Shown here: positions 38,366 through 55,583 of the stretch, piece after piece
Position numbering within the stretch: position 1 is the stretch's first letter
Layout: each line of letters begins with the position of its first letter
NCBI GenBank assembly: GCA_021824625.1
Contig: JAKAKE010000181.1
Coordinates: 5,209 to 69,208, forward strand
DNA from: Bacteroidota bacterium
Lineage (GTDB): Bacteria > Bacteroidota > Ignavibacteria > Kapaibacteriales > UBA2268
Length of the DNA stretch: 64,000 nucleotides
Direction of reading: 5' to 3'
Program-made: the position numbers and the translations under genes
The notes under the pieces: generated by a model
Database searches by the model: none
Seen by the model: only the letters and a program-made list of their open reading frames with translations
Told to the model about the DNA's origin: nothing

Positions 38366-41300
38366 ATGATATTCAAACTACTCAAGCGATTTGCCTTGAT
38401 TTTACTGATGGCTTTTGCTCTAACGCAAACGTCATCGGCACAATTGCTGACCGACTTTATTTTTAGCTATTCTTATCCGGCATACGCTCCCGTCAGCGGG
38501 GGAGATGTGCTTTACCAAACGAACAGTGGCTATTGGTCGGGACAGTATCTTAGAAGTACAAACATCGGTTTCCCGTTTGTTTTCGACGGAGTAACTTATA
38601 CCCAAATGAATGTTTCGGATGCGGACTGGATCTCTTTCAGGCCTCCGTACAGTTATAATGGCCTATGGCAGACTCCATGGGATATAAACAGCATGAATGA
38701 CAGAAATCCCGCAATTTACTCTTATGGAGGATACAATTGCTTTGTTACTATGGATTCCTGGAACTTGTGTAATCCTGTTGGTGCAATGATTGTAGTTGTA
38801 TCCGGCAATTCACCCTATCGTGTTTGTACGGTTCAATGGACTAATGTTATGTTCAGATATGCTTGGTGGTATAACTGGCCCCCAACTGAGTGCTGGAACA
38901 TTCAAATCAAGCTATATGAAACAACAAATAAAGTTGAAATTCATTATGGCCCAAAGCAGTGGGGTAGTTACTTTTTTACTTCCTGCGTAGGTTTAGCAGG
39001 TCAAATTGGCTCAAACAGATATCAAAATGTTGACCCTAATTCGGGTGCAGGTACATTTTCTACACAGACAAACAATCCCGGAAGGTTCTTTAATACCTTG
39101 GCTGAATTCAATATGTTAACTGCCAACCTGAAATTCCAGTTTGCAAGGCCCGAAATTTCAAACGTTTATCCTGCAAATAATACAGGCTATCCGCGTAATG
39201 TCGTAATTCCTGCTCTGAATAATTTCGGTGTGAAGATTTCAAGGCCATCCGGAATGACTCATTATGTTCAATATGAAGTTACAGGGCCTAAGGAATCGAA
39301 TCCTTCCCAAATTGTTTACACTGCTTGGGATGCAGGCAGTCAGCCAAATATATATTTACCCAGCACAGTTCATACAGACCCGGGTGGAAATCCTGATTAC
39401 TTCTTTGTGAATGCTACAGGACCTATGGCTCAGAGTCCAGGTGTGAACGGCGACTTCTTTACTGGAGTTACCGCAGGTACTTTCAAAGCCACGGGCAGGA
39501 TGTATGAGCCTCCTCCGAGCAATTTGCTGCTTTCAACAAAACAATCTGAATTCAGTATTATTTATGATAATGATTTAGCTGTTATGAATATTATTACTCC
39601 TTTGAAGAAGGAAGAACAGCTATATCCTATTCAGGAAATACCATTGTCAATCAGGATTCAGAACAGGGGTATAAATGATATTATCGAAATGGCTGTTTCT
39701 GTTCAGATTTTCGACCACAACATGGTTAAAATATTCGAAATTATCGACAAACCTTATTCATTTACTACACCACTTCATTCGCTTGAATATAAAGTATTGG
39801 GAGATGTTGGCATATTCCCGGGAAGTGAAGCAGGTGATTACTACATAAGGGTAACGGTTAATTTAGTGGGCCCAACAGACCAGTTGCTTTCAAATAACGT
39901 TCTGCCGAGAACCGGTGATGAATGGAAGTTCAACCTTGCTCACGAAGTCGAACTCGAAGCCACTACGATTATTATGCCTTCGAACTATGACTTCTACTCA
40001 CCTCCAAACACCAGGCAATTGTATGTCAACAAACCATACAGGCCCGAAGGTTTGGTAACAAACTATGGAGTCAGCGATGTTATAGCCGGTGCAACAATGG
40101 ATATTTTTGACAGTCAAAATAATAGTGTTTATCATGACTCTGTCGAAATTTCGAATGCTCCGTCAGGTAAGTATAACACAACGATTGTACCTTTTGATGT
40201 TGACTGGATTCCCTTGGTGGCAGGTACATACAGGGTTGAATTTACTGTTTATCATAGGAACGACCCCGTCACCACAAATAACAAGAAAACCGATTATGTA
40301 ACGGTTATTGATGGTATGTGCGGTACATATACGATTGGAGCAGGCGGCAACTTCTCGACATTTGATGCGGCTGTGAATGCATTATTCGACAGAGGTGTCA
40401 GCTGCCCTGTTACATTCTATCTCACAGACACTTACTATACCGTAGGTGATAACTCAGCGCCAATTCCGGCTATTGATTTGAGTTCTAAAATTACCGGTTC
40501 CAGCGAGATTAATACTATTACATTCAAGCCATCGCCCATGAAATCTAATGAGCGAGGCGGTATTAATTCGGGTGTTACCGTTGAATTAAGGTCAGCAATG
40601 GGTGTGGGAGTTTTAATCGGACAAAATCATGTGCCGACAAGCACGAATGCTGCCGTGAATATGGTTCCTGCGAACTATAAGAAAATGTACAGTAATTCAA
40701 ACGGCTATATCAGTTTTGATGGCGGTTCAAATAAGAGCATCAGGTTTGTTGTTAACATGATGTTCCCGTTCCAATCGGCATTCTACCTCAGGCAGGGAAC
40801 TAACCATACATCAATTAAAAACTGTATATTCGAAAATGCTTCGCCCGTCAATTCCGGAAGATGCGAATTGCCAAGAACCTTGACTAACTATAAGTACGAA
40901 GAAGATTTCAACAATCTTGACAACAGGGCTTATTCAGCGGCAATTGTTATGAGAAGCAGGCCCTATTATGACTTTAACGGTGCAAATACATTTAACTTAG
41001 ATACATTGCCATGCGTTAACAATAAAATCATGAATAATGAAATAAGCGGTTATGGCATTGGCGTTGTTTCTCTCGGTGCTGGCATTCTTTGGGAATCCGG
41101 ACCGGCAAAGCACAGGAAATACTACAATGAAAACAATGAGATTTCAAACAATCTTATTTACAATGTTTCACGTGCAGGCATATTTGTTGGTTTTGAAATT
41201 AATTCAAAGATAACACATAACAGAATATACAATGTTCTTGGAACATGCAGCGATAATGCCGCAGGTATTATTGCCGGAGGTGATGACCCGCAGTCATTAT

Positions 41301-44257
41301 TATCCAATGCTTATGGATATAACAACATTAACTTGATAATCGGAGAAAACGAAATCAGCAATGTTGTTGGCACCACCAATGCCTCGTATAATTATCCACA
41401 GGTATATGGTATCAAGGTTCAGCAGAGCAGGGGTTCATATCCTCATCCTACGCTGAATAATGTTTACTTCCCGGACGTTGATGAGCATATGCTTATCAGA
41501 AACAACGTGGTTTGGGATTTAAAAGCAAGCAATGACAAAACAAGCAGGTATGGTATCAGGCTGTTCACAGAACGTATGCCTTTAGCCAATTTGCCGGTTT
41601 GGGATAACGGCTATTTCACCTTTACAGGCAGAGCTCAAGCCGAAACAACTGACCCGGTGTATTTCTCCCGCGGAGATATGATTTACAATAATACTGTCAT
41701 TATAGGCGACGATGCAGTAAGTTCACGCGGTGCAGTAATGGGTATTGCTTCTCAGCATGTCAAAAATGCTAAGATTTACAACAATGCTGTTGCAGTTCTC
41801 GATAATCTGCTCGATGCATCTTGCCCGGCTTCTGCCGCATTGTTCTATGAAGGTATTAAACCGGATTTACTTGATAATGTTTATTTATCTGACAAGAATG
41901 CTATCTGGGTACCTGCTTCTTCAGGTTCAAATGCATTCGGTTTCATCGAAACCAAAAATAGCGGTGTTGTAATTGACAATACTCCTGATGATTTAAGGCT
42001 CGATGCATACAAAACACTTAGGCAATGGTACTTCTGGGTAGGCCAGGATGTCAGTTCCGTATTTGAGAATTGGTTACCTGACTATAACTATCCTGTTTTG
42101 TTACCGAATGGTAATTTACGGATTAAATCCCCGGTTCCCGTTGGTTCGGTTTTGAACAATCGCGGTAACAGATTACCTGTTGAAGTTCCGATTGACATAG
42201 ACCAGGTAGGAAGAACATCAGGCCAGTTATATGATATTGGAGCAGATGAGTTTGACGGTACACTATGGTTAAGCGACATCGAACTTCTTATGATTTCTGC
42301 ACCCGGTGCATACAAGACAAACATTCCGCCTCTTGCAGGCTTTGGAGATGCAGAACATATTATGGGCGAGTCTCCAATTGATGTAAAAGTCAAGCTTCGC
42401 AATAATGGCAATAACCATCAATCAGGTGTTGATGTTAATTTAAAAATATATATTGAATCAAGTTCAGGCTTGTGGTTTGAAACACCAACCTATCTTGTAA
42501 TTGATACTACAATTAAGGTTAACATGCTTTCCGGAGTTACCCAGGAATTTTCATTTGGGTTAGCTAACGGCAGCGGTACGGAATTTAAACCTCAAACATA
42601 TTCCGAGCTTCCGACTTATCTGTATTATAACAGATTTGCCTCTATGCTTGGAAATATTACACCAAGATATAAGATTAAGATTCATGTTGGTGCTGACCAA
42701 AAGAATAACAATAACGACAAAGAAGTCGTTACAAGATTCTATTTGAAACAGTCCCATACATTGAATATGATTGTATCGGGCGAGAACAGCTACCATGATT
42801 TGTGGCTCGAAGATAATTTAGGCATCACAAGAATAGCTTCTGATGTTAACCCGTCTGCAACATTCACTGCCGAAGAGGTTGCCGGTTCGATGAACTATCA
42901 GTATCTGACCGGGGAATCCTCGGGAGTGACCGGGCAAACAGGACTTACCGGCATTGGCTGGTTTACAAATGTTTACCGTGATGACCCAACGACAAATACC
43001 TGGAAGATTGATGTTCTTGACCGCAGCGGTTGGGAACCCAAGACAGTTAATTACACGATGTACAGGCATTTGTTCTGGTCAGACGGCCTCGATAAACCTG
43101 TGGCAAGATATGAGAGAAAGAGTCTTGTTGACTTCTTGACAAAGCCCGTTTCTCATGATGCTAAGCAGAACTTGTTTATCGCAAGCCAGGAAATGGTACG
43201 TGAGTTAACGGGATATGGATTAGTTCCTCCTGCTAATGACCCAGCCAATCCAATAGATCCTGAATTTGTGTACACTTATTTAAGAGCACAAACTAATCTT
43301 GCACCTTGGAATGCTCCTGAATATATCTTATTTGACTATGTGAATACCATCCCTCCCATTTATGGAGTAAGAGGCATTAATGTTGGCAGAGACCTGGTTG
43401 AATTCATAACCAGTACTCATGGTATCTCCTTGTCATACTCTCAGGACCAAGACCCGATGCCCGGTGTGCTTTCATTATTCCCAAGCGGAGAAGGTTTAGC
43501 AAGAACTGCTTATCAATATTCATATAATGACCCTGCGCCGCCTCCGATGGCAATATATAACCGCGCGCCGTTCGGGGTTGGAACAACTACACTTGACAGA
43601 AATGTCATTGTATTGTGTGCTGACTGGAGACATTTTGGAAATACCGAAAGAGTTCTCCGTTCAATGCTTGACTTTGCAGAGAAGAACGGCGGAGCTATTA
43701 TTCCGGTTGAACTTCTGAGCTTCGACGCTCAGGCGAGAGCTAAGAATGTTGACGTTACATGGACAACTGCCAGTGAATATAGAACAGACAGGTTCGAAAT
43801 TGAAAGAGCTAACCTGACAGAAACCGGCAAGAGCCTGTTTAGCAGGATTGCCGACATTAAGGCTGCCGGTAACAGCTCTGAAGTTAAGAACTATGGATTT
43901 GTTGATTCAGATGTAGAATTTGGAAGTTCATACGTTTATCGTTTGAGAATGGTTGACCTTGACGGTAAGTCAGAGTTCAGTGGAGAAAAAATTGTTGAAA
44001 TAGCAGAGGATGGTATATGGCTCGGAGAAGCAATGCCAAATCCAGCTATCAATGAGGTTGTCTTCCAATATACAGGCAAACCGTCGAATCTTGAACTCGT
44101 TCTCTTTGATGTAAACGGTAAGAGTGTTGCACCAAAATTTGAATTGAGAACAAATGAGATTAAACTTGACCTTAATTTACTCACCAGCGGCAACTATACT
44201 TTAGTTGCTAAATCTGGTGATATGGTTATTAAGAGGCAGTTTACAGTAGTGAAATAA
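38366..44257 (+). CDS. giant secreted beta-helix/CARDB-like repeat protein with T9SS C-terminal sorting domain (T9SS cargo)
   Basis: 1963 aa; signal peptide (LLMAFALTQTSSA); parallel beta-helix-type repeats (NNEISGYGIGVVSLGAG; NNLIYNVSRAGIFVGFEINSKITHNRIYNV); C-terminal ~80 aa matches type-A Por/T9SS CTD (AMPNPAINEVVFQY...LVLFDVNGKSV...SGNYTLV); AGGAGG SD. Confidence 0.8.
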   Translation: MIFKLLKRFALILLMAFALTQTSSAQLLTDFIFSYSYPAYAPVSGGDVLYQTNSGYWSGQYLRSTNIGFPFVFDGVTYTQMNVSDADWISFRPPYSYNGLWQTPWDINSMNDRNPAIYSYGGYNCFVTMDSWNLCNPVGAMIVVVSGNSPYRVCTVQWTNVMFRYAWWYNWPPTECWNIQIKLYETTNKVEIHYGPKQWGSYFFTSCVGLAGQIGSNRYQNVDPNSGAGTFSTQTNNPGRFFNTLAEFNMLTANLKFQFARPEISNVYPANNTGYPRNVVIPALNNFGVKISRPSGMTHYVQYEVTGPKESNPSQIVYTAWDAGSQPNIYLPSTVHTDPGGNPDYFFVNATGPMAQSPGVNGDFFTGVTAGTFKATGRMYEPPPSNLLLSTKQSEFSIIYDNDLAVMNIITPLKKEEQLYPIQEIPLSIRIQNRGINDIIEMAVSVQIFDHNMVKIFEIIDKPYSFTTPLHSLEYKVLGDVGIFPGSEAGDYYIRVTVNLVGPTDQLLSNNVLPRTGDEWKFNLAHEVELEATTIIMPSNYDFYSPPNTRQLYVNKPYRPEGLVTNYGVSDVIAGATMDIFDSQNNSVYHDSVEISNAPSGKYNTTIVPFDVDWIPLVAGTYRVEFTVYHRNDPVTTNNKKTDYVTVIDGMCGTYTIGAGGNFSTFDAAVNALFDRGVSCPVTFYLTDTYYTVGDNSAPIPAIDLSSKITGSSEINTITFKPSPMKSNERGGINSGVTVELRSAMGVGVLIGQNHVPTSTNAAVNMVPANYKKMYSNSNGYISFDGGSNKSIRFVVNMMFPFQSAFYLRQGTNHTSIKNCIFENASPVNSGRCELPRTLTNYKYEEDFNNLDNRAYSAAIVMRSRPYYDFNGANTFNLDTLPCVNNKIMNNEISGYGIGVVSLGAGILWESGPAKHRKYYNENNEISNNLIYNVSRAGIFVGFEINSKITHNRIYNVLGTCSDNAAGIIAGGDDPQSLLSNAYGYNNINLIIGENEISNVVGTTNASYNYPQVYGIKVQQSRGSYPHPTLNNVYFPDVDEHMLIRNNVVWDLKASNDKTSRYGIRLFTERMPLANLPVWDNGYFTFTGRAQAETTDPVYFSRGDMIYNNTVIIGDDAVSSRGAVMGIASQHVKNAKIYNNAVAVLDNLLDASCPASAALFYEGIKPDLLDNVYLSDKNAIWVPASSGSNAFGFIETKNSGVVIDNTPDDLRLDAYKTLRQWYFWVGQDVSSVFENWLPDYNYPVLLPNGNLRIKSPVPVGSVLNNRGNRLPVEVPIDIDQVGRTSGQLYDIGADEFDGTLWLSDIELLMISAPGAYKTNIPPLAGFGDAEHIMGESPIDVKVKLRNNGNNHQSGVDVNLKIYIESSSGLWFETPTYLVIDTTIKVNMLSGVTQEFSFGLANGSGTEFKPQTYSELPTYLYYNRFASMLGNITPRYKIKIHVGADQKNNNNDKEVVTRFYLKQSHTLNMIVSGENSYHDLWLEDNLGITRIASDVNPSATFTAEEVAGSMNYQYLTGESSGVTGQTGLTGIGWFTNVYRDDPTTNTWKIDVLDRSGWEPKTVNYTMYRHLFWSDGLDKPVARYERKSLVDFLTKPVSHDAKQNLFIASQEMVRELTGYGLVPPANDPANPIDPEFVYTYLRAQTNLAPWNAPEYILFDYVNTIPPIYGVRGINVGRDLVEFITSTHGISLSYSQDQDPMPGVLSLFPSGEGLARTAYQYSYNDPAPPPMAIYNRAPFGVGTTTLDRNVIVLCADWRHFGNTERVLRSMLDFAEKNGGAIIPVELLSFDAQARAKNVDVTWTTASEYRTDRFEIERANLTETGKSLFSRIADIKAAGNSSEVKNYGFVDSDVEFGSSYVYRLRMVDLDGKSEFSGEKIVEIAEDGIWLGEAMPNPAINEVVFQYTGKPSNLELVLFDVNGKSVAPKFELRTNEIKLDLNLLTSGNYTLVAKSGDMVIKRQFTVVK

Positions 44258-44418: not shown

Positions 44419-44859
44419 TTAGTCAATTGTTATTACTCTTTCGTTCTCATTATTTTTTTTAAATTTGATATTGACTGAATATGAATCGGGAGGAAGGATG
44501 CCAAAAGCTTTGTCTGCCCATTCGACGAGTTTAATTGAATCACTTGAAAATATTATTTCATCGAAACCAATCTCTATAAGTTCATTTGATTTTTTTATCC
44601 TGTACAGGTCAATATGCAGTATTGGGATTTCATTATTTTCCAACACACCTGCATATTGATTCATTATTGTGAACGTAGGGCTGTTAACAAGTTCATCAAC
44701 TTTAAAATAACTGCAGATTCCTTTTATAAATTCGGTTTTACCGGCACCTAAGTCACCGAATAAAGCGACAACATTTCCGGGTTTTAATTCTGCCGCAAAT
44801 CGAATACCCAAATCAAAAGTTTCCTGCTGACTCTTTGTCGTAAATTTTCCAAGTTTCAT
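44419..44859 (-). CDS. tsaE: tRNA threonylcarbamoyladenosine biosynthesis ATPase TsaE
   Basis: P-loop ALFGDLGAGKTEFIKGI and overall YjeE/TsaE pattern, 146 aa. Confidence 0.85.
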   Translation of the reverse strand: MKLGKFTTKSQQETFDLGIRFAAELKPGNVVALFGDLGAGKTEFIKGICSYFKVDELVNSPTFTIMNQYAGVLENNEIPILHIDLYRIKKSNELIEIGFDEIIFSSDSIKLVEWADKAFGILPPDSYSVNIKFKKNNENERVITID

Positions 44860-44899: not shown

Positions 44900-46471
44900 T
44901 TATTTTTTTCTTAGGGTTATTACTGGAATAATCATTTCCTCCATAGATATGCCTCCATGCTGGAAACTGTCTTTATACCTTTGCAGATAGTGGTGATAAT
45001 CAGTCGGATAGACAAAATAGTAATCTTCTTTTGCTATTATATTATTGACGGTTATGCCTGAATTAGGTAGTTTATAATTAATTGGATTTCTAATTTGCAT
45101 TGCATGTCGTTGTTCGGCTTTTACATTTTTTCCAAATTTATACCTAAGGCAGGTTGAAGTATCTTTATCGCCAAGTACTTTTACACCCCGCATACACCTG
45201 ATCGAACCATGGTCGGTTGTAATTACAATATTTACATCCAAACCGGCTAATAATTTTAACATACCAAAAAAGCTGGAATGTTGGAACCATGATTTGGTTA
45301 ATGACCTATAAGCTGCCTCATCAGGTGCTATTTCCTTTAGTATGGCAAAGTCTGACCTTGAATGGGCAATCATATCAACAGAGTTAATTACAATAGCAGT
45401 AAGATGGCTTTTGGCATAATTGAGAATGTTGCCCTCTATTTTCTTTCCAAAATCGGTATCATGGATTTTGATATAATTAATTTGGTTATCCAATTTTATT
45501 TTTTTTCTTTTCAATTGCTCTTCGAGTAACTCTTTTTCATACGCATTTGCCTTATGGTCTTCCGAATTAGTTTCACCAACCCACCACTGAGGATAGTGCT
45601 TTTGAATGTCAGAGGGCATCAAACCTGCGAAAATGGCATTTCTTGCATACGGGGTTGCTGTTGGAATAATTGAATTAAAATAATCCTTTTGAAAAGTGTA
45701 ATATGGCTTTAATAGCTCTTCCATTACTAACCACTGGTCAAGTCTCATGCAATCAATAATAAAAAATACAGTGGGTTTTGAATTCTTTAATTGTGGAAAT
45801 AAATATTTCTCGACAATATCGGGTGATAAATCAGGGATGTTATCACTATATGTTTTGTTAACCCAGTCATAATAATTATCTTCTACGAATTTTGAAAAAG
45901 CAGAATTAGCTTCACGCCACTGGTCCTTCAGAGTCTGCTCAAAACCAAGTTCCGGGCTGTTATCCAGTTCCATTGACCATGAAACGAGTTTTATATATAT
46001 ATCCAGCCAATCGTTCCAATTGAGGTTATCGAAAAACCTTGTATTTAATTGATGAAATCCAATCAAATAATCATGGGAAAGTTTCTCGGACCGGATTTTA
46101 TGCGATTCAAGATGCTTTTTAATTGCGGCGAGGATTTGTGCAGGATTAACAGGTTTCGTAAGATAATCGTCAATCTTTTTCCCTATGGCTTCTTCCATTA
46201 CGCTTTCAGCTTCATTTTTAGTTACCATAACGATTGGGGTGTAGGGATTTGTTTCTTTGAGTATTGGCAAAGTATCAAGCCCGCTCATTCCAATCATTGA
46301 CTCGTCAAGGAAGATTAGGTCGTATCGTTTTTGTTTAACAAGTTCGACCGCATCTTCGCCGTTAGTTACCTGGTCAACAGAATACCCGCGCTGTTCGATT
46401 AGAATAATGTGTGGTTTCAATAAATCTATCTCATCGTCTATCCAAAGAATTTTTCCTTTAGAATTTTCCAT
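44900..46471 (-). CDS. porX: PorX-like response regulator (receiver domain + PglZ/alkaline-phosphatase-superfamily domain)
   Basis: N-terminal REC (ILWIDDEIDLL...DLIFLDESMIGMSGLDTL...PIVMVTK) followed by ~380-aa PglZ-type domain (IIDCMRLDQW; ITTDHGS; HGGISMEE); size 523 aa matches PorX of T9SS-bearing bacteria. Confidence 0.7.
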   Translation of the reverse strand: MENSKGKILWIDDEIDLLKPHIILIEQRGYSVDQVTNGEDAVELVKQKRYDLIFLDESMIGMSGLDTLPILKETNPYTPIVMVTKNEAESVMEEAIGKKIDDYLTKPVNPAQILAAIKKHLESHKIRSEKLSHDYLIGFHQLNTRFFDNLNWNDWLDIYIKLVSWSMELDNSPELGFEQTLKDQWREANSAFSKFVEDNYYDWVNKTYSDNIPDLSPDIVEKYLFPQLKNSKPTVFFIIDCMRLDQWLVMEELLKPYYTFQKDYFNSIIPTATPYARNAIFAGLMPSDIQKHYPQWWVGETNSEDHKANAYEKELLEEQLKRKKIKLDNQINYIKIHDTDFGKKIEGNILNYAKSHLTAIVINSVDMIAHSRSDFAILKEIAPDEAAYRSLTKSWFQHSSFFGMLKLLAGLDVNIVITTDHGSIRCMRGVKVLGDKDTSTCLRYKFGKNVKAEQRHAMQIRNPINYKLPNSGITVNNIIAKEDYYFVYPTDYHHYLQRYKDSFQHGGISMEEMIIPVITLRKK

Positions 46472-46689
46472 AAAATATCCCTATACGTTTATTTTAAAAT
46501 GACAAATTATATAAAAAAGTATAGATGAAGGTATAATCAGACCACGCATTATTAATAAAAATTTTAAGTGTAGAAGGAGTTTGAAACAAAATATTGTTTT
46601 TAATGCCTTTCCAATACAATTTTTCTTTTAAAATTTAGTTTAATACCTTACTTTTACTGATTATAATTAACAATATTAATAAATTTGAT

Positions 46690-47997
46690 ATGAACCTTCA
46701 AAAACTCACTTTGAAATCTCAGGAGGCTGTTCAGGCCGCCGGAGAGATTGCCGTTAGTTACAACAACCAGGCAATTGAGGAGTCTCACTTATTTGCTGCG
46801 ATGATTCAGGATGAGGGAGGTATTATTCCTGAAATATTAATGAAGCTTGGTACTAACATGGCTTATTTAAAGGTAAAGGTATTTGAGGAACTTGAAAAAC
46901 TTCCTAAAGTGAGTGGAAATACTAATCAATTTTTATCTCCATCATTAATGAAAATCCTTGATGAAGCCGAGAAGGAATCAAAAACCCTTAAAGATGAGTA
47001 TATAAGTACAGAACACATTCTTATTGCATTGTCAACGGTTAAATCACGTATTTCGCAATTGTTGAAAGACAATGGCGTTAACAAAGAAAATATATACAAA
47101 ATACTGCATGAAATAAGAGGTAGTCAAAGAGTAACAGACCAAAACCCGGAAGACAAATACCAGGCATTGAAACGTTATGGAAGACTTTTGAATGAAGAGG
47201 CAGAGCAAGGTAAGCTTGACCCTGTAATTGGAAGGGAAGATGAAATCAGGCGTGTTCTGCAGGTGCTTTCAAGAAGGACAAAGAACAATCCTATTTTGAT
47301 AGGTGAACCTGGTGTCGGTAAGACTGCAATAGTCGATGGAATTGCCCACAGGATTGTTACAGGGGATGTCCCTGATACATTAAAAACAAAGCAGGTTGTT
47401 ACGCTCGACCTTGGGGCATTAGTTGCAGGAACAAGCTTCAGAGGGCAGTTTGAGGAACGTTTAAAGGCTGTAATCAAAGAAGTAACCGATTCAGCAGGGC
47501 AGATAATCTTATTCATTGATGAAATTCATACACTGATTGGTGCCGGAGCCGCCACGGGAAGCATGGATGCGGCAAATATATTGAAGCCGGCTCTTTCACG
47601 GGGGGATTTACGCTGTATCGGTGCCACTACCATTGATGAATATCAGAAGTATATTGAAAAAGATGCCGCACTCGAAAGGCGTTTTCAAAAGGTTATGGTG
47701 GAAGAACCTACAATTGATGACACTATTTCAATTCTAAGAGGACTGAAAGAAAGATATGAAGTTCATCACGGTGTCAGGATTACAGACCCTGCTATTGTGG
47801 CTGCATCAGAACTGTCAACACGATACATTACAGATAGGTTTTTACCGGATAAGGCTATTGACCTGATTGACGAAGCCGCAAGTAAGCTAAGGATGGAGAT
47901 TGATTCCATGCCCGCCGAATTGGATTCGATTGAGAGGAAAATCCGTCAGCTTGAAATTGAAAAACAGGCTCTTCTGAGGGAAATCGGTAATAAATGA
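46690..47997 (+). pseudogene. clpB: truncated clpB (N-domain + NBD1 + start of M-domain only; 435 aa vs ~860 aa)
   Basis: Clp N repeats, Walker [15 protein letters not shown], Walker [11 protein letters not shown], sensor-1/Arg finger region, M-domain coiled coil [22 protein letters not shown] then stop (REIGNK*); no NBD2 anywhere in window; abrupt drop in GC downstream. Confidence 0.65.
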
Positions 47998-48073
47998 ATA
48001 ATGAAAACTAAAATATGAGTGTTGAAATTATTATATTTGTTTGTTGTTAAAATTTATTATTCAAGGGTTTTAT

Positions 48074-48298
48074 ATGATAACACTCACTAAAATTGATAAT
48101 AGTCTTGTTACAGTTAATGCAGATGAAATAGAAATTGTTGAAACATTCCATGACACCACTGTCAGCCTCAAAAGTGGGAAGAAACTTATTGTACAGGAAT
48201 CTGCCGATGATATAATTGCAAAGGTCATATTTTACCGTCAGCTGTGTTTTTCAAATTATTTTAATGAACCCGATATAAAATCTACGGACAGTCTTTGA
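48074..48298 (+). CDS. FlbD-like small protein (PF06289 family)
   Basis: MITLTKIDNSLVTVNADEIEIVETFHDTTVSLKSGKKLIVQESADDIIAKVIFYRQ aligns well to the FlbD pattern MI.LT.LNG....LNA..IE.IE..PDTVI.L.NGKK..V.ES..EV...V; start chosen at internal Met of the annotated ORF. Confidence 0.6.
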   Translation: MITLTKIDNSLVTVNADEIEIVETFHDTTVSLKSGKKLIVQESADDIIAKVIFYRQLCFSNYFNEPDIKSTDSL

Positions 48299-48301
48299 AA
48301 A

Positions 48302-50239
48302 ATGCCGTTTCATCCTGAAAAATTGTTGTCGTCAAAACGAACAAAATTGTTCAGGATAATTTTAATTATCATACAAATTATTTCTTTTTATTATTTGGAT
48401 GCGCAAGACTCCACGATTAAAAGTGAATTACCGCCTATTAAAAATTTAATAACGGTTTCAACAGTAAAACTAACAAATACACTTCTTTTTAATGGGGATG
48501 CATTACTTGATTTCGATATATTCGGCGGAAATTTAAAAATTGTTCAACGATATAAAGGTACTACTATAAAATATTACAGAGACACTACAAAAATAGATTC
48601 TACAATAAAAGATACTGTAAAATATGACACAACCTACCCAAGAATAAATTACTTGAATATAACTGATATTGAAATTTTTAAAATGAATTATTCACATCCA
48701 ATTGATGATTTTCTTAGTATAGTAGCAGAAAACAATTGGATTTATGGTTCATATAATAATCTGAGCAGGTTGAATGGTACAGCCGGTTTACGATTTAATA
48801 CATCTGCAAAATCCTTTTTGGAATTCAAAGGGGGTTTGGAGAAGAACAACCAAATAGGAGTTAATTATTTAGGTCCGATTATTAATCTTGAAGGCAGGTT
48901 ATTTGATTTATTGTTAGAAGATTATCACATCAATTCATCATTTAATTCTGAATATATAAAACTAAAGAATAATAGAAAAAATGCAGACATTGATTTTGGT
49001 TTATTCATTGATAAAAAATTTGACGAGTATGACAGGATTCATTTTAATGTAAATTATTTAATGATGTTCAGAGACCAATTATCCTTTCTTAGATTGGAAT
49101 CAATTACATCTACCCCTATTGAATCATGGTTTGACAGTAAGATTGCATCAAATCTTAATTTTAATTTTGGGTTGTTTGAGAATTTTTTTGGTAATATAGA
49201 TTTTTCAGTCCAAAACAATTGGAAAAACAGGTACTTTCAGGATTATATCCCAAATTATAACATTACAGGTATTAATAAAAAACGAGAAACTTTTGGAATA
49301 TCTTTTTTGGGTGAAATTAAATACCAGACATCAAAATTTAAACAAATCATTGGGTTATTATTCAGTTCCGGAAATGATGAGAATAAGATTAGTAAAAATT
49401 ACAATATCAACGATGTTGGATTTAATTATCTTAAAGAAATCGAAAAATTGTTTGATTACAGCGAAAATACAACTCGATTATATTTATTAACTGAATGGGA
49501 ACCAACGTTTAAGGATAAAATAAATATTGAAACTTCTGTATCTCTTAATCAGAGGGATACACCAAGTGAACAGGATAATACCGATGGGGATTTGTTTTCT
49601 TCTTTGATTAACTTTAATTATTTACATAAGTTTAATAATTCATTGTTCCTTAACCTATTTGCTGACATGGATTTTTATCATCAGGTATATATTAAATCTA
49701 AAATGAGTAATGATAATAAATGGAGAAAATATATAAGTCTTAAATCCAAAATATCCTGGTTTACTTCTTATTTCACAATGAATCCGGAACTGGAAATTTT
49801 TGCCAATTATGAGGATTATGATTTTGTTGATAGTTTATCAATATCGAATAACAGAAGTTCAAGGCAATTAAGTTACAGGGATTCTATAACAATTTTTCTT
49901 GGAAAAGTATTAAGTTTGCAATCATACATTAATATCAGGTATAATGAAAAAGGAATAATATTTTGGGAAAATTTTTCTGTTTTACCTACAAGTATTGATT
50001 TTGAGAAATTCTTTAAAATCATGCTGTCAGGTAAATTTAGCGACAATTACTTTGCCGCTGTTGGGCTTAGATATTATAGTTTTGCATTACTTTCGATTGC
50101 ACCTGAGATTGATATAAAATTATTTTTATTAGGTCAATCTTATATTTCTTTACAAGGTTGGTATGATTTTCAAAATATTAGTAAACCGGACTTTAGACAA
50201 ATTGCGAATTTCTTTTTGACGACAAAAATTGTATTATGA
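48302..50239 (+). CDS. secreted hypothetical protein, beta-rich (possible outer-membrane beta-barrel)
   Basis: Signal peptide (KLFRIILIIIQIISFYYLDA|QD); 645 aa rich in alternating aromatic/polar residues (Y/F/N/S); ~27% GC; 3-nt gap from FlbD-like gene and 4-nt overlap with next gene. Confidence 0.35.
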   Translation: MPFHPEKLLSSKRTKLFRIILIIIQIISFYYLDAQDSTIKSELPPIKNLITVSTVKLTNTLLFNGDALLDFDIFGGNLKIVQRYKGTTIKYYRDTTKIDSTIKDTVKYDTTYPRINYLNITDIEIFKMNYSHPIDDFLSIVAENNWIYGSYNNLSRLNGTAGLRFNTSAKSFLEFKGGLEKNNQIGVNYLGPIINLEGRLFDLLLEDYHINSSFNSEYIKLKNNRKNADIDFGLFIDKKFDEYDRIHFNVNYLMMFRDQLSFLRLESITSTPIESWFDSKIASNLNFNFGLFENFFGNIDFSVQNNWKNRYFQDYIPNYNITGINKKRETFGISFLGEIKYQTSKFKQIIGLLFSSGNDENKISKNYNINDVGFNYLKEIEKLFDYSENTTRLYLLTEWEPTFKDKINIETSVSLNQRDTPSEQDNTDGDLFSSLINFNYLHKFNNSLFLNLFADMDFYHQVYIKSKMSNDNKWRKYISLKSKISWFTSYFTMNPELEIFANYEDYDFVDSLSISNNRSSRQLSYRDSITIFLGKVLSLQSYINIRYNEKGIIFWENFSVLPTSIDFEKFFKIMLSGKFSDNYFAAVGLRYYSFALLSIAPEIDIKLFLLGQSYISLQGWYDFQNISKPDFRQIANFFLTTKIVL

Positions 50240-50667
50240 ATGATAAATCGAATAGCAGCGATATTTCTTTTACACAAGAATTGACAAGCGAAAGAAAATC
50301 CCTTAAGCTCGTAGAACCTATGCTGAAGGAGATAAAACAAAAATTTTGTATAAGTAATGAACTGTATTGTAATCTTGTAATCACCGTTACAGAAGCCATC
50401 AATAATGCAATTATACATGGCAATAAATTTGACATCAACAAGCATGTATATGTTAAAGTTGATTGTAACAATAAGGCTTTGACAGTGTCAGTTAAAGACC
50501 AGGGTAATGGTTTTGATTTGGATAATTTGGAAAATCCCTTGTCGCCTGAAAATTTACTTAAGGAAAGCGGAAGAGGTATATTTATCATTAAAAAAATTGC
50601 CGATGATGTTAAATTTAATTTTTCTGATGGCACAGAAATAATACTTAATTTCAATTTGAATAATTAA
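50236..50667 (+). CDS. RsbW/SpoIIAB-like anti-sigma regulatory factor (HATPase_c_2 serine protein kinase)
   Basis: 143 aa; N-box-like VTEAINNAIIHGN, G-boxes DQGNGFD and ESGRGIFIIKKIAD, matching small GHKL serine kinases of partner-switching modules. Confidence 0.7.
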   Translation: MNDKSNSSDISFTQELTSERKSLKLVEPMLKEIKQKFCISNELYCNLVITVTEAINNAIIHGNKFDINKHVYVKVDCNNKALTVSVKDQGNGFDLDNLENPLSPENLLKESGRGIFIIKKIADDVKFNFSDGTEIILNFNLNN

Positions 50668-50810
50668 TCAGTATTTTTTTTATTTTATTGTTTGTTACTT
50701 TTATCGCTAATGATTTAACTTTATCTTTGCGGTATTGGGACTGAAATTTACAGTAACCACTTTTTAAAAATAAATGTTAAATTCATAATTCATAATTCGT
50801 AATTAATTTT

Positions 50811-53036
50811 ATGTCGCCTAATCGTTTTATCGAACAGGAAAAAATCAGAAAAAGTTTTTTTCTTCCGCTTGGAATACCTGAATCAAAGCGTATCTTTTTC
50901 GTTAATGGAATTTTTGGTGTTGGTAAAAGCCGGTTTGTCAGAAATTTCATTAATGAAGTTCTTGAAAAGAAAGTCATTGATGCACTTTGTTTTTTTGACG
51001 GCGATTATCGTATAACTAATTTATATGAGCTTGTCAATACACTTGCCATTAATTTCAAATCTTCCGATGAAATAAACCAACCTTATTTGTTTTCCGAATG
51101 TGATTATAATAAAACCAGATATATTGAACTACTAACATTACTAAAGGAGAAAGATGAGTCATTGTCTGAAGTTATTAAATCAAAAGCATCTTTGTTATCG
51201 GAAACAGATTATCTAATCAATGATTTAAAATCTTCTAATCTTATAATTGATGAACAACTACTCGAGAAATATCTCGACAAAAAAGGCGACAGGCGCCTTC
51301 TGACAGATGTTACCAGAGTATCTGCCGAAGCATTCATAGTTGACCTGATGAATAAATATTTTCCTTATGAAAATGTCGGGGATGACTTCGAAAGATTCTA
51401 TTCTGATGCCGAGCCAAAAAAAATATTAATTGCTTATGATAATATTGAAAATCTTGACTACACGCTGAACAAGTGGCTCACAGGCACTATGCTCGACTAT
51501 TGCTGCGACAAGAAATTTTCCGATTTCGTTTCTTATAATATTTCATATATCAGGGAAGACACTAAAATATCCAAATACCTCGATTTCAGATTTATTATTT
51601 CATCCAGAGAAGAATATTTCAACAAAAAAGAATTTGGCTATAATTGGGGCAAGTATGAATTATACATTGGTTCGCTTGAGCTGGAGCCGTTATTCGAACA
51701 TGATTTGCAGGACTTCTTTGATGACTTGAAAGTTGCAATTACTCAGCCTTACAGTGAAATAATTAAATTGACAAAAAGTTTACCCTTACTTTTAATGACA
51801 TACCTCGAATATATTGACAGCTCAGGTGAGGTACAAATCCAACTACCGGTTATTGAATCTGCAGTGTCATCTATTATGAAGGGACTAACTCAGCAGCAAA
51901 GGGATTGGCTCATCTGTGCATCTTTTCTCGATGATTTTGATGAAAAGGGATTGAGATGTTTCAATGAAATCGGCTCTGATTATAAACTTGCTTATTCTTT
52001 TTTGATAAATAAAAATTCAATAACTGATAGCCATGATAATACAAGCAAAATAAATATTAAACCCCTGATAAAAGGATTTATCCTGGATTACACGAAAACT
52101 GTTCAACCTGATTATTATGAATACTATAAAGATAGAGGTGGTGTTTACGAAAAGACAAAAGATGTTCTTGATAAAGTTAGTACCGATGATTTGAATGTTA
52201 TTAGAAGTTTCGCATATTTTAAATCTTTTGATACTGAGTCTGCTCTCGAAGATACTTTTCAATCGGATATACATCTCGCTAAAGAATTTTTATTAAATAA
52301 TCCTGACTATTTTATCAGGAACAAAACCACATTCACACTAAAGTCGAATTTTACTCAAAAGCTCGACGAGTACAACGTAGTGGTGGATGGAAATAAATAT
52401 GAATTGAAGAAACAATTGATTAGAGATTCATGGATACGACTTTCTGAAAATTTAAGTAAAAAACAATCGGAATTTAGCGCTGAGCTTGAGAATATGAAAA
52501 CCGAATCTGCCGAATTGGAGAAAGTAGTAAAAACCCTGCGCCAGGAATACGATAAAGACCAGGCAGATTTCTTTGAAACAGAAAACTCGCTGATTGAATT
52601 GAGACGTGAAACTTTAATTTTTGCAAAAAAAAATAATATTTCTGCAGGGATTATTTGTCTGATAATTACAGTAGTATTAGGATTAGCAACTAATTTCTTC
52701 CCCGAAATATTTAAAGACCTCGACAGCGGGAACAAAGAATTGTATAACATTCTATATATATCTTCATATAGCTTTTCTATATTATTTGGTATTCTGACAA
52801 TCGTATATTTTATAAAAGAAATAAATATTTTGACAAGAAAAGAAGAATACCAAGAATTGAAAGAAGAAATATCATTAGCAGAGGAAGAGAACAATCAGCG
52901 TCAGACAAGGATGAGAGCCAATAAAGAAATTAGGTCGGATTCCGAAACAAAACTTTCTGAAATGATTGTAAGAAAAAAACTCCTCGAAAGTGAAATTGAA
53001 ACCATAATAATGAAACTCGAAGAACCGTTTATATAA
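50811..53036 (+). CDS. large P-loop NTPase with C-terminal coiled-coil / two-TM hairpin (uncharacterised)
   Basis: Walker A FVNGIFGVGKSRFV near N-terminus (KAP/STAND-like GxxGxGKS), candidate Walker B KILIAYDNIEN; ~300-aa helical middle region; C-terminal coiled coil interrupted by two hydrophobic helices (ISAGIICLIITVVLGLATNFF; ILYISSYSFSILFGILTIVYFI); ~30% GC. Confidence 0.5.
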   Translation: MSPNRFIEQEKIRKSFFLPLGIPESKRIFFVNGIFGVGKSRFVRNFINEVLEKKVIDALCFFDGDYRITNLYELVNTLAINFKSSDEINQPYLFSECDYNKTRYIELLTLLKEKDESLSEVIKSKASLLSETDYLINDLKSSNLIIDEQLLEKYLDKKGDRRLLTDVTRVSAEAFIVDLMNKYFPYENVGDDFERFYSDAEPKKILIAYDNIENLDYTLNKWLTGTMLDYCCDKKFSDFVSYNISYIREDTKISKYLDFRFIISSREEYFNKKEFGYNWGKYELYIGSLELEPLFEHDLQDFFDDLKVAITQPYSEIIKLTKSLPLLLMTYLEYIDSSGEVQIQLPVIESAVSSIMKGLTQQQRDWLICASFLDDFDEKGLRCFNEIGSDYKLAYSFLINKNSITDSHDNTSKINIKPLIKGFILDYTKTVQPDYYEYYKDRGGVYEKTKDVLDKVSTDDLNVIRSFAYFKSFDTESALEDTFQSDIHLAKEFLLNNPDYFIRNKTTFTLKSNFTQKLDEYNVVVDGNKYELKKQLIRDSWIRLSENLSKKQSEFSAELENMKTESAELEKVVKTLRQEYDKDQADFFETENSLIELRRETLIFAKKNNISAGIICLIITVVLGLATNFFPEIFKDLDSGNKELYNILYISSYSFSILFGILTIVYFIKEINILTRKEEYQELKEEISLAEEENNQRQTRMRANKEIRSDSETKLSEMIVRKKLLESEIETIIMKLEEPFI

Positions 53037-53684
53037 TTATGGATACAACCTCGTTATTATCCATTTACCATTTTCATTTTTATTATATTGAATCCTGTCA
53101 TGCAGACGGCTTTCCCTTCCCTGCCAGAATTCAAACACGTCAGGAATGAGCCTGTAACCGCCCCAGTTGGGCGGCAGTGGTACATTCACAGGGTACTTTG
53201 CCATGTATTTTGCAACCTTTCTAATTAATTTGAACCTGCTCGATAGCGGTGAACTCTGTTCAGATGCATAAGTACCCAACTTGCTTGTGTAAGGCCTGGT
53301 CTGAAAGTATTTGTCGGAATCTTCTTTCGATATTTTTTCTAACCTGCCTTCGATTCTAACCTGTCTTTCCAATTTATCCCAAAAGAAAAGAATTGCAGCA
53401 TAAGGGTTCTTTTCGATTTCCTTTCCTTTTCTGCTGTCATAATTTGTATAGAATATAAAACCATTTTCATCAAATTGTTTCAGTAATAAAACTCGGGAAG
53501 AAGGTTTGCCGTCCTTTGTAGAAGTAGATAGGACAAAGGCAGTTGGCTCGAGCATATCTGCTGAAAGCATATCTTCGAACCACGATTTGAATTGTTCAAA
53601 AGGATTTTCATTAGCAGTTTTTTCGCTGAAACTGCCTTTCGTGTAGTCCCTTCGTAAATCTGCAAGGCTGTTAAATATATCCAT
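53037..53684 (-). CDS. pdxH: pyridoxamine 5'-phosphate oxidase
   Basis: FMN-binding split-barrel motifs, C-terminal ...FWQGRESRLHDRIQY...W.I.RLYP signature of PdxH; 215 aa. Confidence 0.88.
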   Translation of the reverse strand: MDIFNSLADLRRDYTKGSFSEKTANENPFEQFKSWFEDMLSADMLEPTAFVLSTSTKDGKPSSRVLLLKQFDENGFIFYTNYDSRKGKEIEKNPYAAILFFWDKLERQVRIEGRLEKISKEDSDKYFQTRPYTSKLGTYASEQSSPLSSRFKLIRKVAKYMAKYPVNVPLPPNWGGYRLIPDVFEFWQGRESRLHDRIQYNKNENGKWIITRLYP

Positions 53685-53747: not shown

Positions 53748-55583
53748 TTATCTTACTAAGGTCATCTTACTTGTTTCAATTCCTTCCGAACTAAACATTT
53801 TATAATAATATGTTCCCGTAGATACTGTGTTCCCGTCAAATTCAACCATGTAATTACCCGAATCTAATCTGGAATTAACAAGTGTGCTGATTTCAGTACC
53901 AAGTGAATTATACACTTTCAGGACAACCATTCCTGAGTTTTGTACATTGAAAACAATATTTGTTTTTCCTGTGAATGGATTCGGATAGTTAGTTAACTTG
54001 GTTGAATAAGAACCCGGAAGAATTTCTATGACCGAAGTAATACTGTCAAGAGTCCTGAATCTTCTCTTACCTGACCATACACTTTCACCAATCACGTTTA
54101 CAGCTTTGACTCGCCAGAAATAATTCCTGTCATGATATAATTTTCCTGCCGGGACAGTATAAGATGTGTCGGTTATCCCGCTTACGTCAATAATGGTTGG
54201 TGTAAAATTATTTTCGATAGCCACTTGTACCTTATAAGAATCTGCATATAAAGATTTATTCCAGATTAATATCGGGGTTAATGATAAACTATCCTGGGCT
54301 ATTTCAGGGAATAACTGGTTAGGTGAATCAGGTTCTACACCTCCTGTTGTAAAACTCCATACAGGTGACCAGCCGCTTTCTCCGCCTTCGTTACTTGCAG
54401 AAACCTTCCAGTAATATTTTGTGTTTGGTTCAAGTCCTGCAAGACTGTAGTGATAGTCTGTTACTGCATTATCATCAACGGAAGGTGATGTAAAATTTGA
54501 GTTTTTTGATACAATAACTCTGTATGTATAAGCCCTTTGTGCGGGATTCCACTGCAATTGAGGGCTTGTGCTTACATCAGTTGCCGCATCAGGAGGCATA
54601 AATAGTACCGGATTATCAGGTGCAGCCATTCCTTTGTTATTCAAATTAAACCAATATGTATAATTTTTTAATGTTCCATTTACATTAACATTTTTTATAG
54701 TTACAGTATAGGTTTTACGGTCTTGTAATCCAGATGCCTTCCAGGAGAGACAGTTCATAACTCCTCCCCAACCCTGATCATCATCAAGTGTCTTTGTATT
54801 TATCTGAACAATTTGCTGATTATCATCTTTCATCTCTATTGTTGCATTTGCATAATTGACATTAACATTATTTCCCCAATTAACTTTATCATAGAATACA
54901 GAAAAAGATAGAAACCAGCTTCTATCAAATAATTCGATAGGATAATCCTGATAAGGAACAGCAACAAAATCATTTGTCCAGTCAGACATGTCTTGTTCTA
55001 GGTATCCTCCCCATTTAAAACTCATTGCCGTATAGTAGGTATATTGTGATGGAACTTTAGGTTGTCCATCACATCTTCCAAACGAAAATGCTTTCAAAAA
55101 TGGATTAATTATAGCTCTTCTATGGCCCAATGAAACGACATTATTATCAATCATCCAGTCATAAATACTTTCAAGTGTTTGAGGAATATAATTCAAAGTT
55201 GAGTACATATTTCCATGTAGATTACTGGATGCAGCTCCAGCAGCACCAACGGGTGTATAGCATTGCCAAGATGAATTAGGCTGATGGTCGAGTTTTGCAT
55301 TTGCAACCATCATTAAAGAAGCCGCCTGTGATTCTGCATCCCCGTTATAATCATAAGTAACTTGTTTTAGGCCATGAATGCTTCTGATTTGATTTACGTA
55401 GTCCAATACTGCCTTCTTTTCTGAAGCTTTTAACACTCCTGGAAAACATGAAGCTGTATTAGGAGGACTGTCGTAATATATATTCCAATCCTGTGAATAC
55501 ATCATGTTTGCATGAAAATTTGCAGTTACAATGATAGTAATAATAAAAATTGTTTTAACAAAAAAGTAGAAATTTTTCTTCAT
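53748..55583 (-). CDS. secreted CAP/SCP/PR-1-domain protein with Fn3-like repeats and T9SS C-terminal sorting domain
   Basis: Signal peptide; CAP core (...MDNNVVSLGHRRAIINPFLKAFSFG); repeated ~90-aa Ig/Fn3-like modules (WNPAQRAYTYRV...YYWKV); C-terminal T9SS CTD (YPNPFTGKTNIVFNV...VLKVYNSLG). Confidence 0.7.
   Translation of the reverse strand: MKKNFYFFVKTIFIITIIVTANFHANMMYSQDWNIYYDSPPNTASCFPGVLKASEKKAVLDYVNQIRSIHGLKQVTYDYNGDAESQAASLMMVANAKLDHQPNSSWQCYTPVGAAGAASSNLHGNMYSTLNYIPQTLESIYDWMIDNNVVSLGHRRAIINPFLKAFSFGRCDGQPKVPSQYTYYTAMSFKWGGYLEQDMSDWTNDFVAVPYQDYPIELFDRSWFLSFSVFYDKVNWGNNVNVNYANATIEMKDDNQQIVQINTKTLDDDQGWGGVMNCLSWKASGLQDRKTYTVTIKNVNVNGTLKNYTYWFNLNNKGMAAPDNPVLFMPPDAATDVSTSPQLQWNPAQRAYTYRVIVSKNSNFTSPSVDDNAVTDYHYSLAGLEPNTKYYWKVSASNEGGESGWSPVWSFTTGGVEPDSPNQLFPEIAQDSLSLTPILIWNKSLYADSYKVQVAIENNFTPTIIDVSGITDTSYTVPAGKLYHDRNYFWRVKAVNVIGESVWSGKRRFRTLDSITSVIEILPGSYSTKLTNYPNPFTGKTNIVFNVQNSGMVVLKVYNSLGTEISTLVNSRLDSGNYMVEFDGNTVSTGTYYYKMFSSEGIETSKMTLVR

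Follow-up and report, generated by a model that had tools for sequence, protein, structure and literature searches.

A conserved gene pair of Ignavibacteria and Kapaibacteria with recurrent STAND NTPase, FlbD-like and half-ClpB neighbours: a possible envelope-linked signalling cassette

The window analysed here is a stretch of 64,000 nucleotides (64 kb) from the Bacteroidota bacterium assembly GCA_021824625.1 (contig JAKAKE010000181.1, positions 5,209 to 69,208 of the forward strand). Five co-directional genes occupy positions 46690-53036 of its + strand and encode, in order, a half-length ClpB (half-ClpB), a FlbD/SwrD-family protein of 74 amino acids (aa), a secreted beta-rich protein of 645 aa, an RsbW-like serine kinase of 143 aa and a P-loop nucleoside triphosphatase (NTPase) of 741 aa; the last four are called the module below. 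Comparison with related loci leads us to conclude that this gene cluster is real, chromosomal, vertically inherited and specific to Ignavibacteria and Kapaibacteria. Its invariant unit is a pair, the 645-aa protein with the kinase, to which the genes for NTPase, FlbD and half-ClpB are recurrent, ordered, co-directional and dispensable additions. By analogy with known switches, we suggest, at a probability of about 0.35, that the cluster may be an envelope-linked signalling cassette in which a membrane-bound STAND switch gates the kinase.

An earlier note, made from the sequence alone, had singled out the four genes of the module, and their positions, strand and lengths were all confirmed. The flbD gene (48074-48298, +) follows the half-clpB gene (46690-47997, +) after 76 nt. 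The gene for the 645-aa protein (48302-50239, +) starts 3 nt after flbD, and the kinase gene (50236-50667, +) overlaps its stop by 4 nt, which bears out the tight spacing of the first three genes described in that note. An AT-rich spacer of 143 nt (50668-50810) with a possible internal promoter then precedes the NTPase gene (50811-53036, +). A simple scan of 46400-53036 found no terminator-like site on the + strand, and scans for sigma-70 and Bacteroidetes-type (TAnnTTTG) promoters gave matches at chance level; a TAnnTTTG match lies at 50722 in the spacer, but the window as a whole shows no enrichment of this motif. The four genes of the module follow half-clpB, and all five are probably transcribed together. 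An assembly chimera can be discounted, since NCBI, ENA and Logan contigs, assembled separately, agree on the DNA of the locus. Two further contigs, L003 (GCA_027401235.1) and L004 (ERZ27237587), start inside the spacer, leaving 123 and 33 nt of it ahead of the NTPase gene, which suggests strain-level structural variation or a drop in coverage between kinase and NTPase genes.

Two sets of loci were used to assess conservation. The first, seeded with a 9-sequence NTPase alignment, consisted of the window and 26 loci from genomes and contigs; the nearest species-level genome is "Ignavibacteria bacterium RIFOXYC2_FULL_35_21", whose NTPase is 81% identical. For the second, the seed was the 645-aa protein: a word-index search returned no homolog but the protein itself, and 370 relatives came from a pattern scan of metagenome contigs; 80 of their loci (77 non-redundant) were fetched. 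In the NTPase-seeded set, no fewer than eight lineages (the window, L017, L006/L018, L008/L019, L009, L011, L035 and L036) have the five-gene order, with half-ClpB directly upstream of the module. Locus L028 has a response-regulator-HD gene followed by those for FlbD, the 645-aa protein, kinase and NTPase, and the order 645-aa protein, kinase, NTPase recurs in L010, L020, L024 and L032. Altogether, 13 of about 20 informative loci carry either this trio or the full five-gene order, with differing flanks, and on a crude neighbour-joining tree of the NTPase the five-gene state is scattered. The gaps vary from -4 to +32 nt between the 645-aa protein and kinase genes and from 7 to 188 nt between kinase and NTPase genes. 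The earlier note had held its proposal open to the finding that homologs of these genes never co-occur elsewhere; this does not apply, because the genes recur together on one strand in different contexts, down to 24-30% protein identity.

The 645-aa-seeded metagenome set showed which of the genes belong together most firmly. The kinase gene lies directly downstream of the 645-aa homolog at 67 of 70 testable loci, whereas NTPase was found at 7 of 46, FlbD at 4 of 60 and an upstream half-ClpB at 6 of 46; at three of the last (L055, L062 and L069) FlbD is absent and half-ClpB stands directly 5' of the 645-aa gene homolog. Given that the two genes are adjacent almost throughout and the others often absent, the 645-aa protein and the kinase make up the invariant unit; translation of the two is coupled. 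Loci with this pair range in guanine-plus-cytosine (GC) content from 0.22 to 0.61 and include Ca. Kapaibacterium thiocyanatum and an Ignavibacteria metagenome-assembled genome (MAG). The four genes had been put forward as one module; their recurrent co-occurrence stands, but the conserved unit is the pair, and the rest is dispensable. In L039 (13572-17510), ISL3 and rve transposases follow the 645-aa homolog, and the kinase and NTPase genes are missing.

The 143-aa protein was matched to HATPase_c_2 (PF13581) with an E value of 4e-22 (79 bits, cutoff 27.4), and its nearest solved relatives are RsbW (6m36, E=1.8e-8) and SpoIIAB, in agreement with its first description as RsbW-like. The N-box (TEAINNAIIHGN), G1 (DQGNGFD) and G2 (GRG) motifs are conserved among its orthologs. 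The protein scores below the NCBIfam equivalog cutoffs for both RsbW (NF003144, 51.6 against 145) and SpoIIAB (TIGR01925, 50.6 against 135), and is best described as a GHKL serine-kinase-like protein of the RsbW/SpoIIAB/RsbT type.

The partner of the kinase, the 645-aa protein, had no match in Pfam, NCBIfam, PADLOC or, with a profile search included, PDB sequences. A signal-like segment covers its residues 14-34 (about nt 48341-48403), with an A-Q cleavage context and no cysteine, in keeping with the secreted protein first proposed; a signal-like N-terminus with an A-Q site is present in 52 of 63 full-length homologs, many of which end in WNF or WKF. A 68-sequence alignment of the family contains 25 period-2 amphipathic segments, compared with 9.3±3.4 in shuffled profiles, and every one of its 68 sequences ends in L, F or I. 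By these crude, home-made measures, the protein is probably a large outer-membrane beta-barrel. It is the fastest evolving protein of the module, with 27-48% identity between orthologs.

The largest protein of the module, the 741-aa NTPase, has its Walker A motif (GIFGVGKS, residues 33-40, nt 50907-50930) and two hydrophobic helices within a long helical C-terminus where the earlier note had placed them. An initial word-index search with this protein gave 11 matches and an impression of rarity; it was superseded by a profile search of 1.84 billion representatives, which returned 446 relatives. Among these, 94 have E≤1e-30 (about 94 clusters at 50% identity), and almost all are full-length proteins of 700-750 aa. 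Among 70 members of the family, GxxGxGK[ST] is present in 69, the Walker B Asp of hhhhD[ND]x[DE] in 63 (hhhhDNxE in the window, ILIAYDNIE, residues 205-213, nt 51423-51449), and R266, the sensor-1 Arg that closes the strand after Walker B (FIISSR, nt 51579-51608), in 68. A G-x-P, GLPL-like motif (nt 51771-51794) is kept in about 61 of the 70, and P325 of [GS]-[ILN]-P in 62; winged-helix and helical domains follow it. An alignment-based AlphaFold2 (AF2) model reached a pLDDT (predicted local distance difference test) of 85.9 and a pTM (predicted template modelling score) of 0.72. Foldseek placed MalT first among the matches to this model (E=2.6e-5), with Avs4 and NRC4 within the top ten. Moreover, TPR arrays and NB-ARC scores above the Pfam cutoff are found in the distant relatives P0267, P0219, P0273 and P0212. 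The window protein itself lies below every Pfam STAND cutoff (NPHP3_N, 18.4 bits against 24.8; AAA_22, 15.6 bits), and a profile search of PDB sequences gave nothing useful.

The motifs, the modelled fold and the NB-ARC-TPR relatives lead us to classify this protein as a STAND NTPase of the NB-ARC type, and its family as a branch of these whose repeat sensor has given way to another structure. The predicted STAND nucleotide-binding oligomerization domain spans residues 1-526 (50811-52388), of which 95-183 are a helical insertion; the N-terminal stretch before Walker A has only 32 residues and no effector domain. The C-terminal part (52395-53036) is predicted to consist of a long helix (residues 529-604), a transmembrane (TM) hairpin (residues about 607-634 and about 647-675, nt 52629-52835, from hydropathy and AF2 secondary structure) and a second long helix (677-737). 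A two-TM hairpin near residues 580-680 is found in essentially all 70 members, the polar residues Q584, E591, N592 and R598, immediately ahead of TM1, are conserved, and so is P631 in the hairpin loop, whose external part has about 12-20 residues. We infer an inner-membrane topology from this arrangement. The family has a fixed architecture and occurs in one lineage only. The comparison with KAP-family or dynamin-like NTPases drawn in the earlier note did not survive classification; neither family is a Pfam match for the window protein, and the fold is that of a STAND protein.

At some loci the NTPase gene has other companions. In a high-GC clade in which it stands alone, a gene for an NfeD-type membrane protease comes next (L029, 12420-13772; L034, 12280-13632), and in L022 the NTPase gene is followed by an overlapping M28 peptidase gene. 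The protease and the peptidase may be alternative envelope-protein partners of the NTPase.

FlbD, the optional first gene of the module, encodes a clear relative of FlbD (Pfam PF06289, E=5e-19, 68 bits, cutoff 24.7), as had been noted; orthologs are 56-90% identical, and a FlbD profile search of PDB sequences gave nothing useful. SwrD forms a hexameric ring that is built by N15, I19, E23 and P26-D27-T28 (2026 preprint PMC13232269). The 74-aa protein retains N15, I19, E23, D27 and T28 (compared with PMC13232269), and judging from these residues it is probably a hexameric ring as well. Where present, flbD always lies directly upstream of the 645-aa gene, and it was never found apart from that gene in these data.

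Upstream of the module lies a gene that the earlier note regarded as a disrupted housekeeping gene. Its 435-aa product has Clp_N, AAA NBD1 and AAA_lid_9 domains, ends in the first M-domain helix, and aligns with positions 1-427 of the 853 of the ClpB model TIGR03346 (669.7 bits, cutoff 1232); the Walker A and B motifs are intact in the sequence. Orthologs at five other loci are 76-86% identical, far above the values for the module genes, and all end at one shared point in the first M-domain helix. The best 120 matches among 5.8 billion proteins, which come from Ignavibacteria, Kapaibacteria and "Bacteroidota" MAGs, are all 414-475 aa long, mostly 435-441. The half-clpB gene also occurs without the module: in L012-L014 the very next gene is a convergent pdxH, separated from it by a hairpin terminator, so that these loci show the window arrangement as an "empty site", and in L015 half-clpB stands alone. 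The half-ClpB gene is thus an intact, stand-alone gene and not a pseudogene. Since its length is fixed, its endpoint is shared and module-free loci have it too, the truncation is an old, lineage-wide state rather than damage done by the module, and the notion that insertion of the module broke clpB was rejected.

Neither the window nor any of the fetched loci contains the NBD2 motifs GPTGVGKT, RPEFLNR and LDEIEKAH. The half-ClpB proteins of the window, L012, L015, L039 and L040 are 435-441 aa long and 72-86% identical between lineages, and no NBD2 lies within ±10 kb of their genes. Either the gene was split in the M-domain and the C-terminal half lies elsewhere, or the product is a single-ring ClpB; the literature searched held no account of a split ClpB in Ignavibacteria. 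In L015, a Ca. Kapaibacterium MAG (GCA_046328995.1), a 93-nt direct repeat (9231-9323 and 11263-11355, 99% identical) copies the last 30 codons of half-clpB and brackets a 2-kb segment with an SBBP/Por_Secre_tail gene on the opposite strand. The segment seems to have inserted into half-clpB at its 3' end and to have restored the gene end in doing so; no such duplicate was found in the window or at the other loci. At the other end of the cluster, the NTPase stop (53036) abuts the stop of a convergent pdxH gene (53037-53684, -) with no intergenic base, and this junction lacks a terminator hairpin, unlike the empty site of L012.

The AT-rich composition of the module was confirmed (GC 0.27-0.33, against 0.355 in the flanks), but its interpretation as the mark of an accessory or defence-type module was not. 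Across 11 orthologous loci the module GC tracks that of the host (0.29-0.48) and lies slightly under that of the flanks in 10. No direct or inverted repeats and no att-like sites bracket the module, apart from short AT-rich chance matches; no integrase or defence genes lie nearby, and 2.9 million IMG/VR viral contigs contained no relatives of the NTPase. PADLOC matched none of the other three proteins, and for the NTPase gave only mad8, on P-loop residues 26-89 (E=3.8e-4, 18 bits). The host-like GC and the lack of repeats, integrases, viral relatives and significant PADLOC matches show that the cluster is not a mobile defence island, and its neighbours are housekeeping genes; this candidate was therefore rejected. 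The mad8 match and the RsbW and SpoIIAB equivalog scores, far below cutoff, agree with the earlier statement that no recognised system is present.

Considering this anatomy and pattern of conservation, we propose that the cluster may link the state of the envelope to a cytoplasmic kinase. In this proposal, the STAND protein would sense the membrane or envelope state through its coiled-coil/TM-hairpin stalk and switch between an ADP-bound monomer and an ATP-bound oligomer. The switch would sequester or release the small GHKL kinase, in the manner of stressosome-RsbT or RsbV/RsbW, and the kinase would then act on a target encoded elsewhere. The barrel protein could be the envelope-side partner or the cargo that is monitored, and FlbD and half-ClpB would add a stress or chaperone link. 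The position of the block behind half-clpB and the 4-nt overlap of clpB and flbD in L035 hint at co-expression under proteotoxic stress. A bolder version, in which a hairpin-sensing STAND oligomer directly gates a barrel-locked kinase of the RsbW/RsbT type, with a SwrD-like ring and a half-ClpB hexamer as cofactors of a new envelope-to-cytoplasm machine, appears doubtful to us.

Several observations weigh against a switch of this kind. A classical partner switch was rejected: genes for a STAS antagonist, a PP2C phosphatase or a sigma factor were not found in the 64-kb window (as the earlier note had observed for STAS and sigma genes), in orthologous loci, or among the conserved neighbours of the 80 loci. 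With so short a loop, the hairpin could not by itself make contact with a protein in the outer membrane. The evidence for a barrel is a sequence signature, the single-sequence AF2 model of the 645-aa protein being unusable (pLDDT 30), and every protein-protein contact, like the output, is one that we infer. The NTPase stands alone at 7 loci in three clades of the crude neighbour-joining tree, is absent from 39 of the 46 testable pair loci, and is also missing from L040 (13491-14578), which has the synteny of the window with a kinase-pdxH gap of 8 nt; it is thus not obligatory for the pair. Finally, housekeeping genes make up the conserved neighbourhood in the wider family, namely malate dehydrogenase (mdh), a beta-CASP RNase (RNase J-like), rpmA (L27) and rplU (L21), so that part of the linkage could be plain synteny.

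Some of these observations also favour the main rival, which confines the functional unit to the 645-aa protein and its kinase; NTPase, FlbD and half-ClpB would each have an unrelated function and would be kept nearby by synteny. The pair does without FlbD at 56 of 60 loci and without clpB at 40 of 46, in addition to the absences of NTPase and the NTPase-free synteny of L040; conversely, NTPase has its solitary loci, and half-ClpB occurs by itself in L012 and L015. The NTPase gene, moreover, follows a 143-nt spacer and may have its own promoter there. Plain synteny accounts less readily for a co-directional order that recurs in pdxH, ADH, Castor/Pollux and rhomboid contexts and is kept down to 24-31% NTPase identity, for kinase-NTPase gaps as short as 7-12 nt, and for the constant attachment of FlbD to the 645-aa gene. 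Furthermore, clpB, the 645-aa gene, kinase and NTPase follow one another without FlbD in three megabase-scale contigs. Taking both sides together, we regard a functional unit confined to the pair as somewhat unlikely, though a serious competitor.

TM effectors are common among defence systems, and the STAND fold, with Avs4 among the Foldseek matches, invites comparison with Avs-like abortive infection. The STAND protein would then sense a phage cue and oligomerise, its TM hairpins would permeabilise the membrane, and the kinase and barrel would serve as an accessory sensor or a receptor decoy. The weak mad8 match on the P-loop, the patchy presence of NTPase and the rapid evolution of the barrel protein, which fits a surface protein, are compatible with this. 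Against it stand the lack of PADLOC matches for the other three proteins, the virus-free record of the family, and the absence of integrases and flanking repeats. The host-like GC, the housekeeping neighbours, the fixed architecture of a single-lineage family and the absence of a nuclease, protease, TIR or SIR2 effector speak against it too, and we consider this role improbable.

Equally hard to credit is a regulator of motility or secretion, in which the FlbD/SwrD-like ring would act on a MotA-like stator, either flagellar or that of the type IX secretion system (T9SS) with its GldL/PorL motor, and the cluster would tune that machine. In its favour are the bona fide FlbD member, the genetic tie of SwrD to stator output with MotA as its top in-silico partner (PMC13232269), a PorX-like gene divergently upstream in the window, L006, L008 and L040, and T9SS cargo genes flanking the locus. 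Against it, the 64-kb window holds no flagellar, mot, gld or por structural gene (as far as flagellar genes go, in line with the earlier note) and neither flagellar nor mot genes occur at the orthologous loci; most 645-aa/kinase loci lack FlbD, L009, L010 and L028 are without the PorX-like neighbour, and biochemical validation of the SwrD-MotA contact was not achieved (PMC13232269).

The surroundings of the cluster in the window were also recorded. Divergently upstream of half-clpB lie a Response_reg+PglZ gene (44900-46471, -), encoding a PorX-like T9SS regulator, and a TsaE gene (44419-44859, -); the two are found together in L006, L008 and L040 as well, and not in L009. Large secreted proteins with type IX C-terminal sorting domains are encoded around the locus at 38366-44257 (+, 1963 aa) and 53748-55583 (-, 611 aa, CAP/fn3), and a protein of 1802 aa (26385-31793, +) is a candidate third member of this group. 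Farther away, two paralogs of about 860-880 aa with PPDK_N and PEP-utilizer mobile domains (15546-18119, -; 19899-22550, +) are divergent and flank a TauE/SafE exporter gene.

The components of the cluster belong to known superfamilies, and the combination of genes and the STAND architecture are undescribed: the cluster was absent from the literature searched, and the combination and architecture from Pfam, NCBIfam and PADLOC. What emerges is a widely conserved, unannotated pair of Ignavibacteria and Kapaibacteria, a probable outer-membrane barrel with an RsbW-like kinase, represented by the 370 metagenome relatives. Beside it stands a sizeable STAND family with an unprecedented membrane hairpin in the place of a sensor and no effector domain. 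The repertoire of STAND switches and of GHKL serine kinase wiring is widened accordingly, SwrD/FlbD gains a non-flagellar context, and the lineage-wide halving of ClpB presents a puzzle to chaperone specialists. The readings as a disrupted gene and as a defence island, both of which automated island finders are prone to give, are corrected. If the bolder version given above were correct, it would be the first case of a membrane-integral STAND sensor wired to a kinase of the partner-switching type, and would give SwrD/FlbD its first non-flagellar role and a naturally halved ClpB its first role.

Compared with known systems, each component combines familiar and divergent features. The NTPase resembles KAP and dynamin-like proteins in combining a P-loop with two TM helices and extended helical stretches; in KAP proteins, however, the TM helices lie inside the NTPase domain, whereas the hairpin here follows about 350 residues after it. 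With STAND proteins of the NB-ARC/AP-ATPase type (Apaf-1/CED-4, plant NLRs, MalT and bacterial Avs) it shares Walker A, the hhhhD[ND]x[DE] Walker B, the sensor-1 Arg, the GxP helical-domain motif and the winged-helix and helical domains (NBD-HD1-WHD fold). It differs from them in lacking an N-terminal effector or CARD/TIR/HTH domain, in carrying a coiled coil, a TM hairpin and a coiled coil in place of a TPR/WD40/LRR sensor, and in a helical insertion of about 90 residues before Walker B. The N-domain, NBD1 with Walker A/B and start of the M-domain of half-ClpB are about as conserved as in true ClpB; the ClpB disaggregase, however, has two AAA+ rings and a complete M-domain in about 850 aa, and half-ClpB, which stops at about position 431 of 853, falls outside that definition. 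The 74-aa protein is a clear PF06289 member with the ring residues of the SwrD/FlbD proteins of fla-che operons, but has H26 where SwrD has the conserved P26, has neither motAB nor any flagellar gene adjacent, and comes from a phylum outside the main range of the family (Bacillota, Actinomycetota and Spirochaetota; PMC13232269).

At the level of the whole cluster, FecA-FecR-FecI and the outer-membrane-protein-triggered RseA/sigma-E pathway offer an analogy of working only, as operons with an outer-membrane barrel, an inner-membrane transducer and an anti-sigma-type cytoplasmic protein. The components of the cluster have no homology to theirs; a TonB box, a plug, an ECF (extracytoplasmic function) sigma factor and a protease are missing, and the periplasmic loop of the putative transducer is very short. 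Closer to the kinase are RsbW/RsbV/sigma-B and SpoIIAB/SpoIIAA/sigma-F; like the kinases of those systems it is a stand-alone GHKL HATPase_c_2 protein, about 140 aa long, and its N, G1 and G2 boxes are intact. It differs from these partner-switching kinases in scoring about one third of the equivalog cutoffs and in having a secreted, barrel-like protein as its constant gene partner. The proposed arrangement, in which a small kinase would be held by a large switchable hub, resembles that of RsbT and the stressosome.

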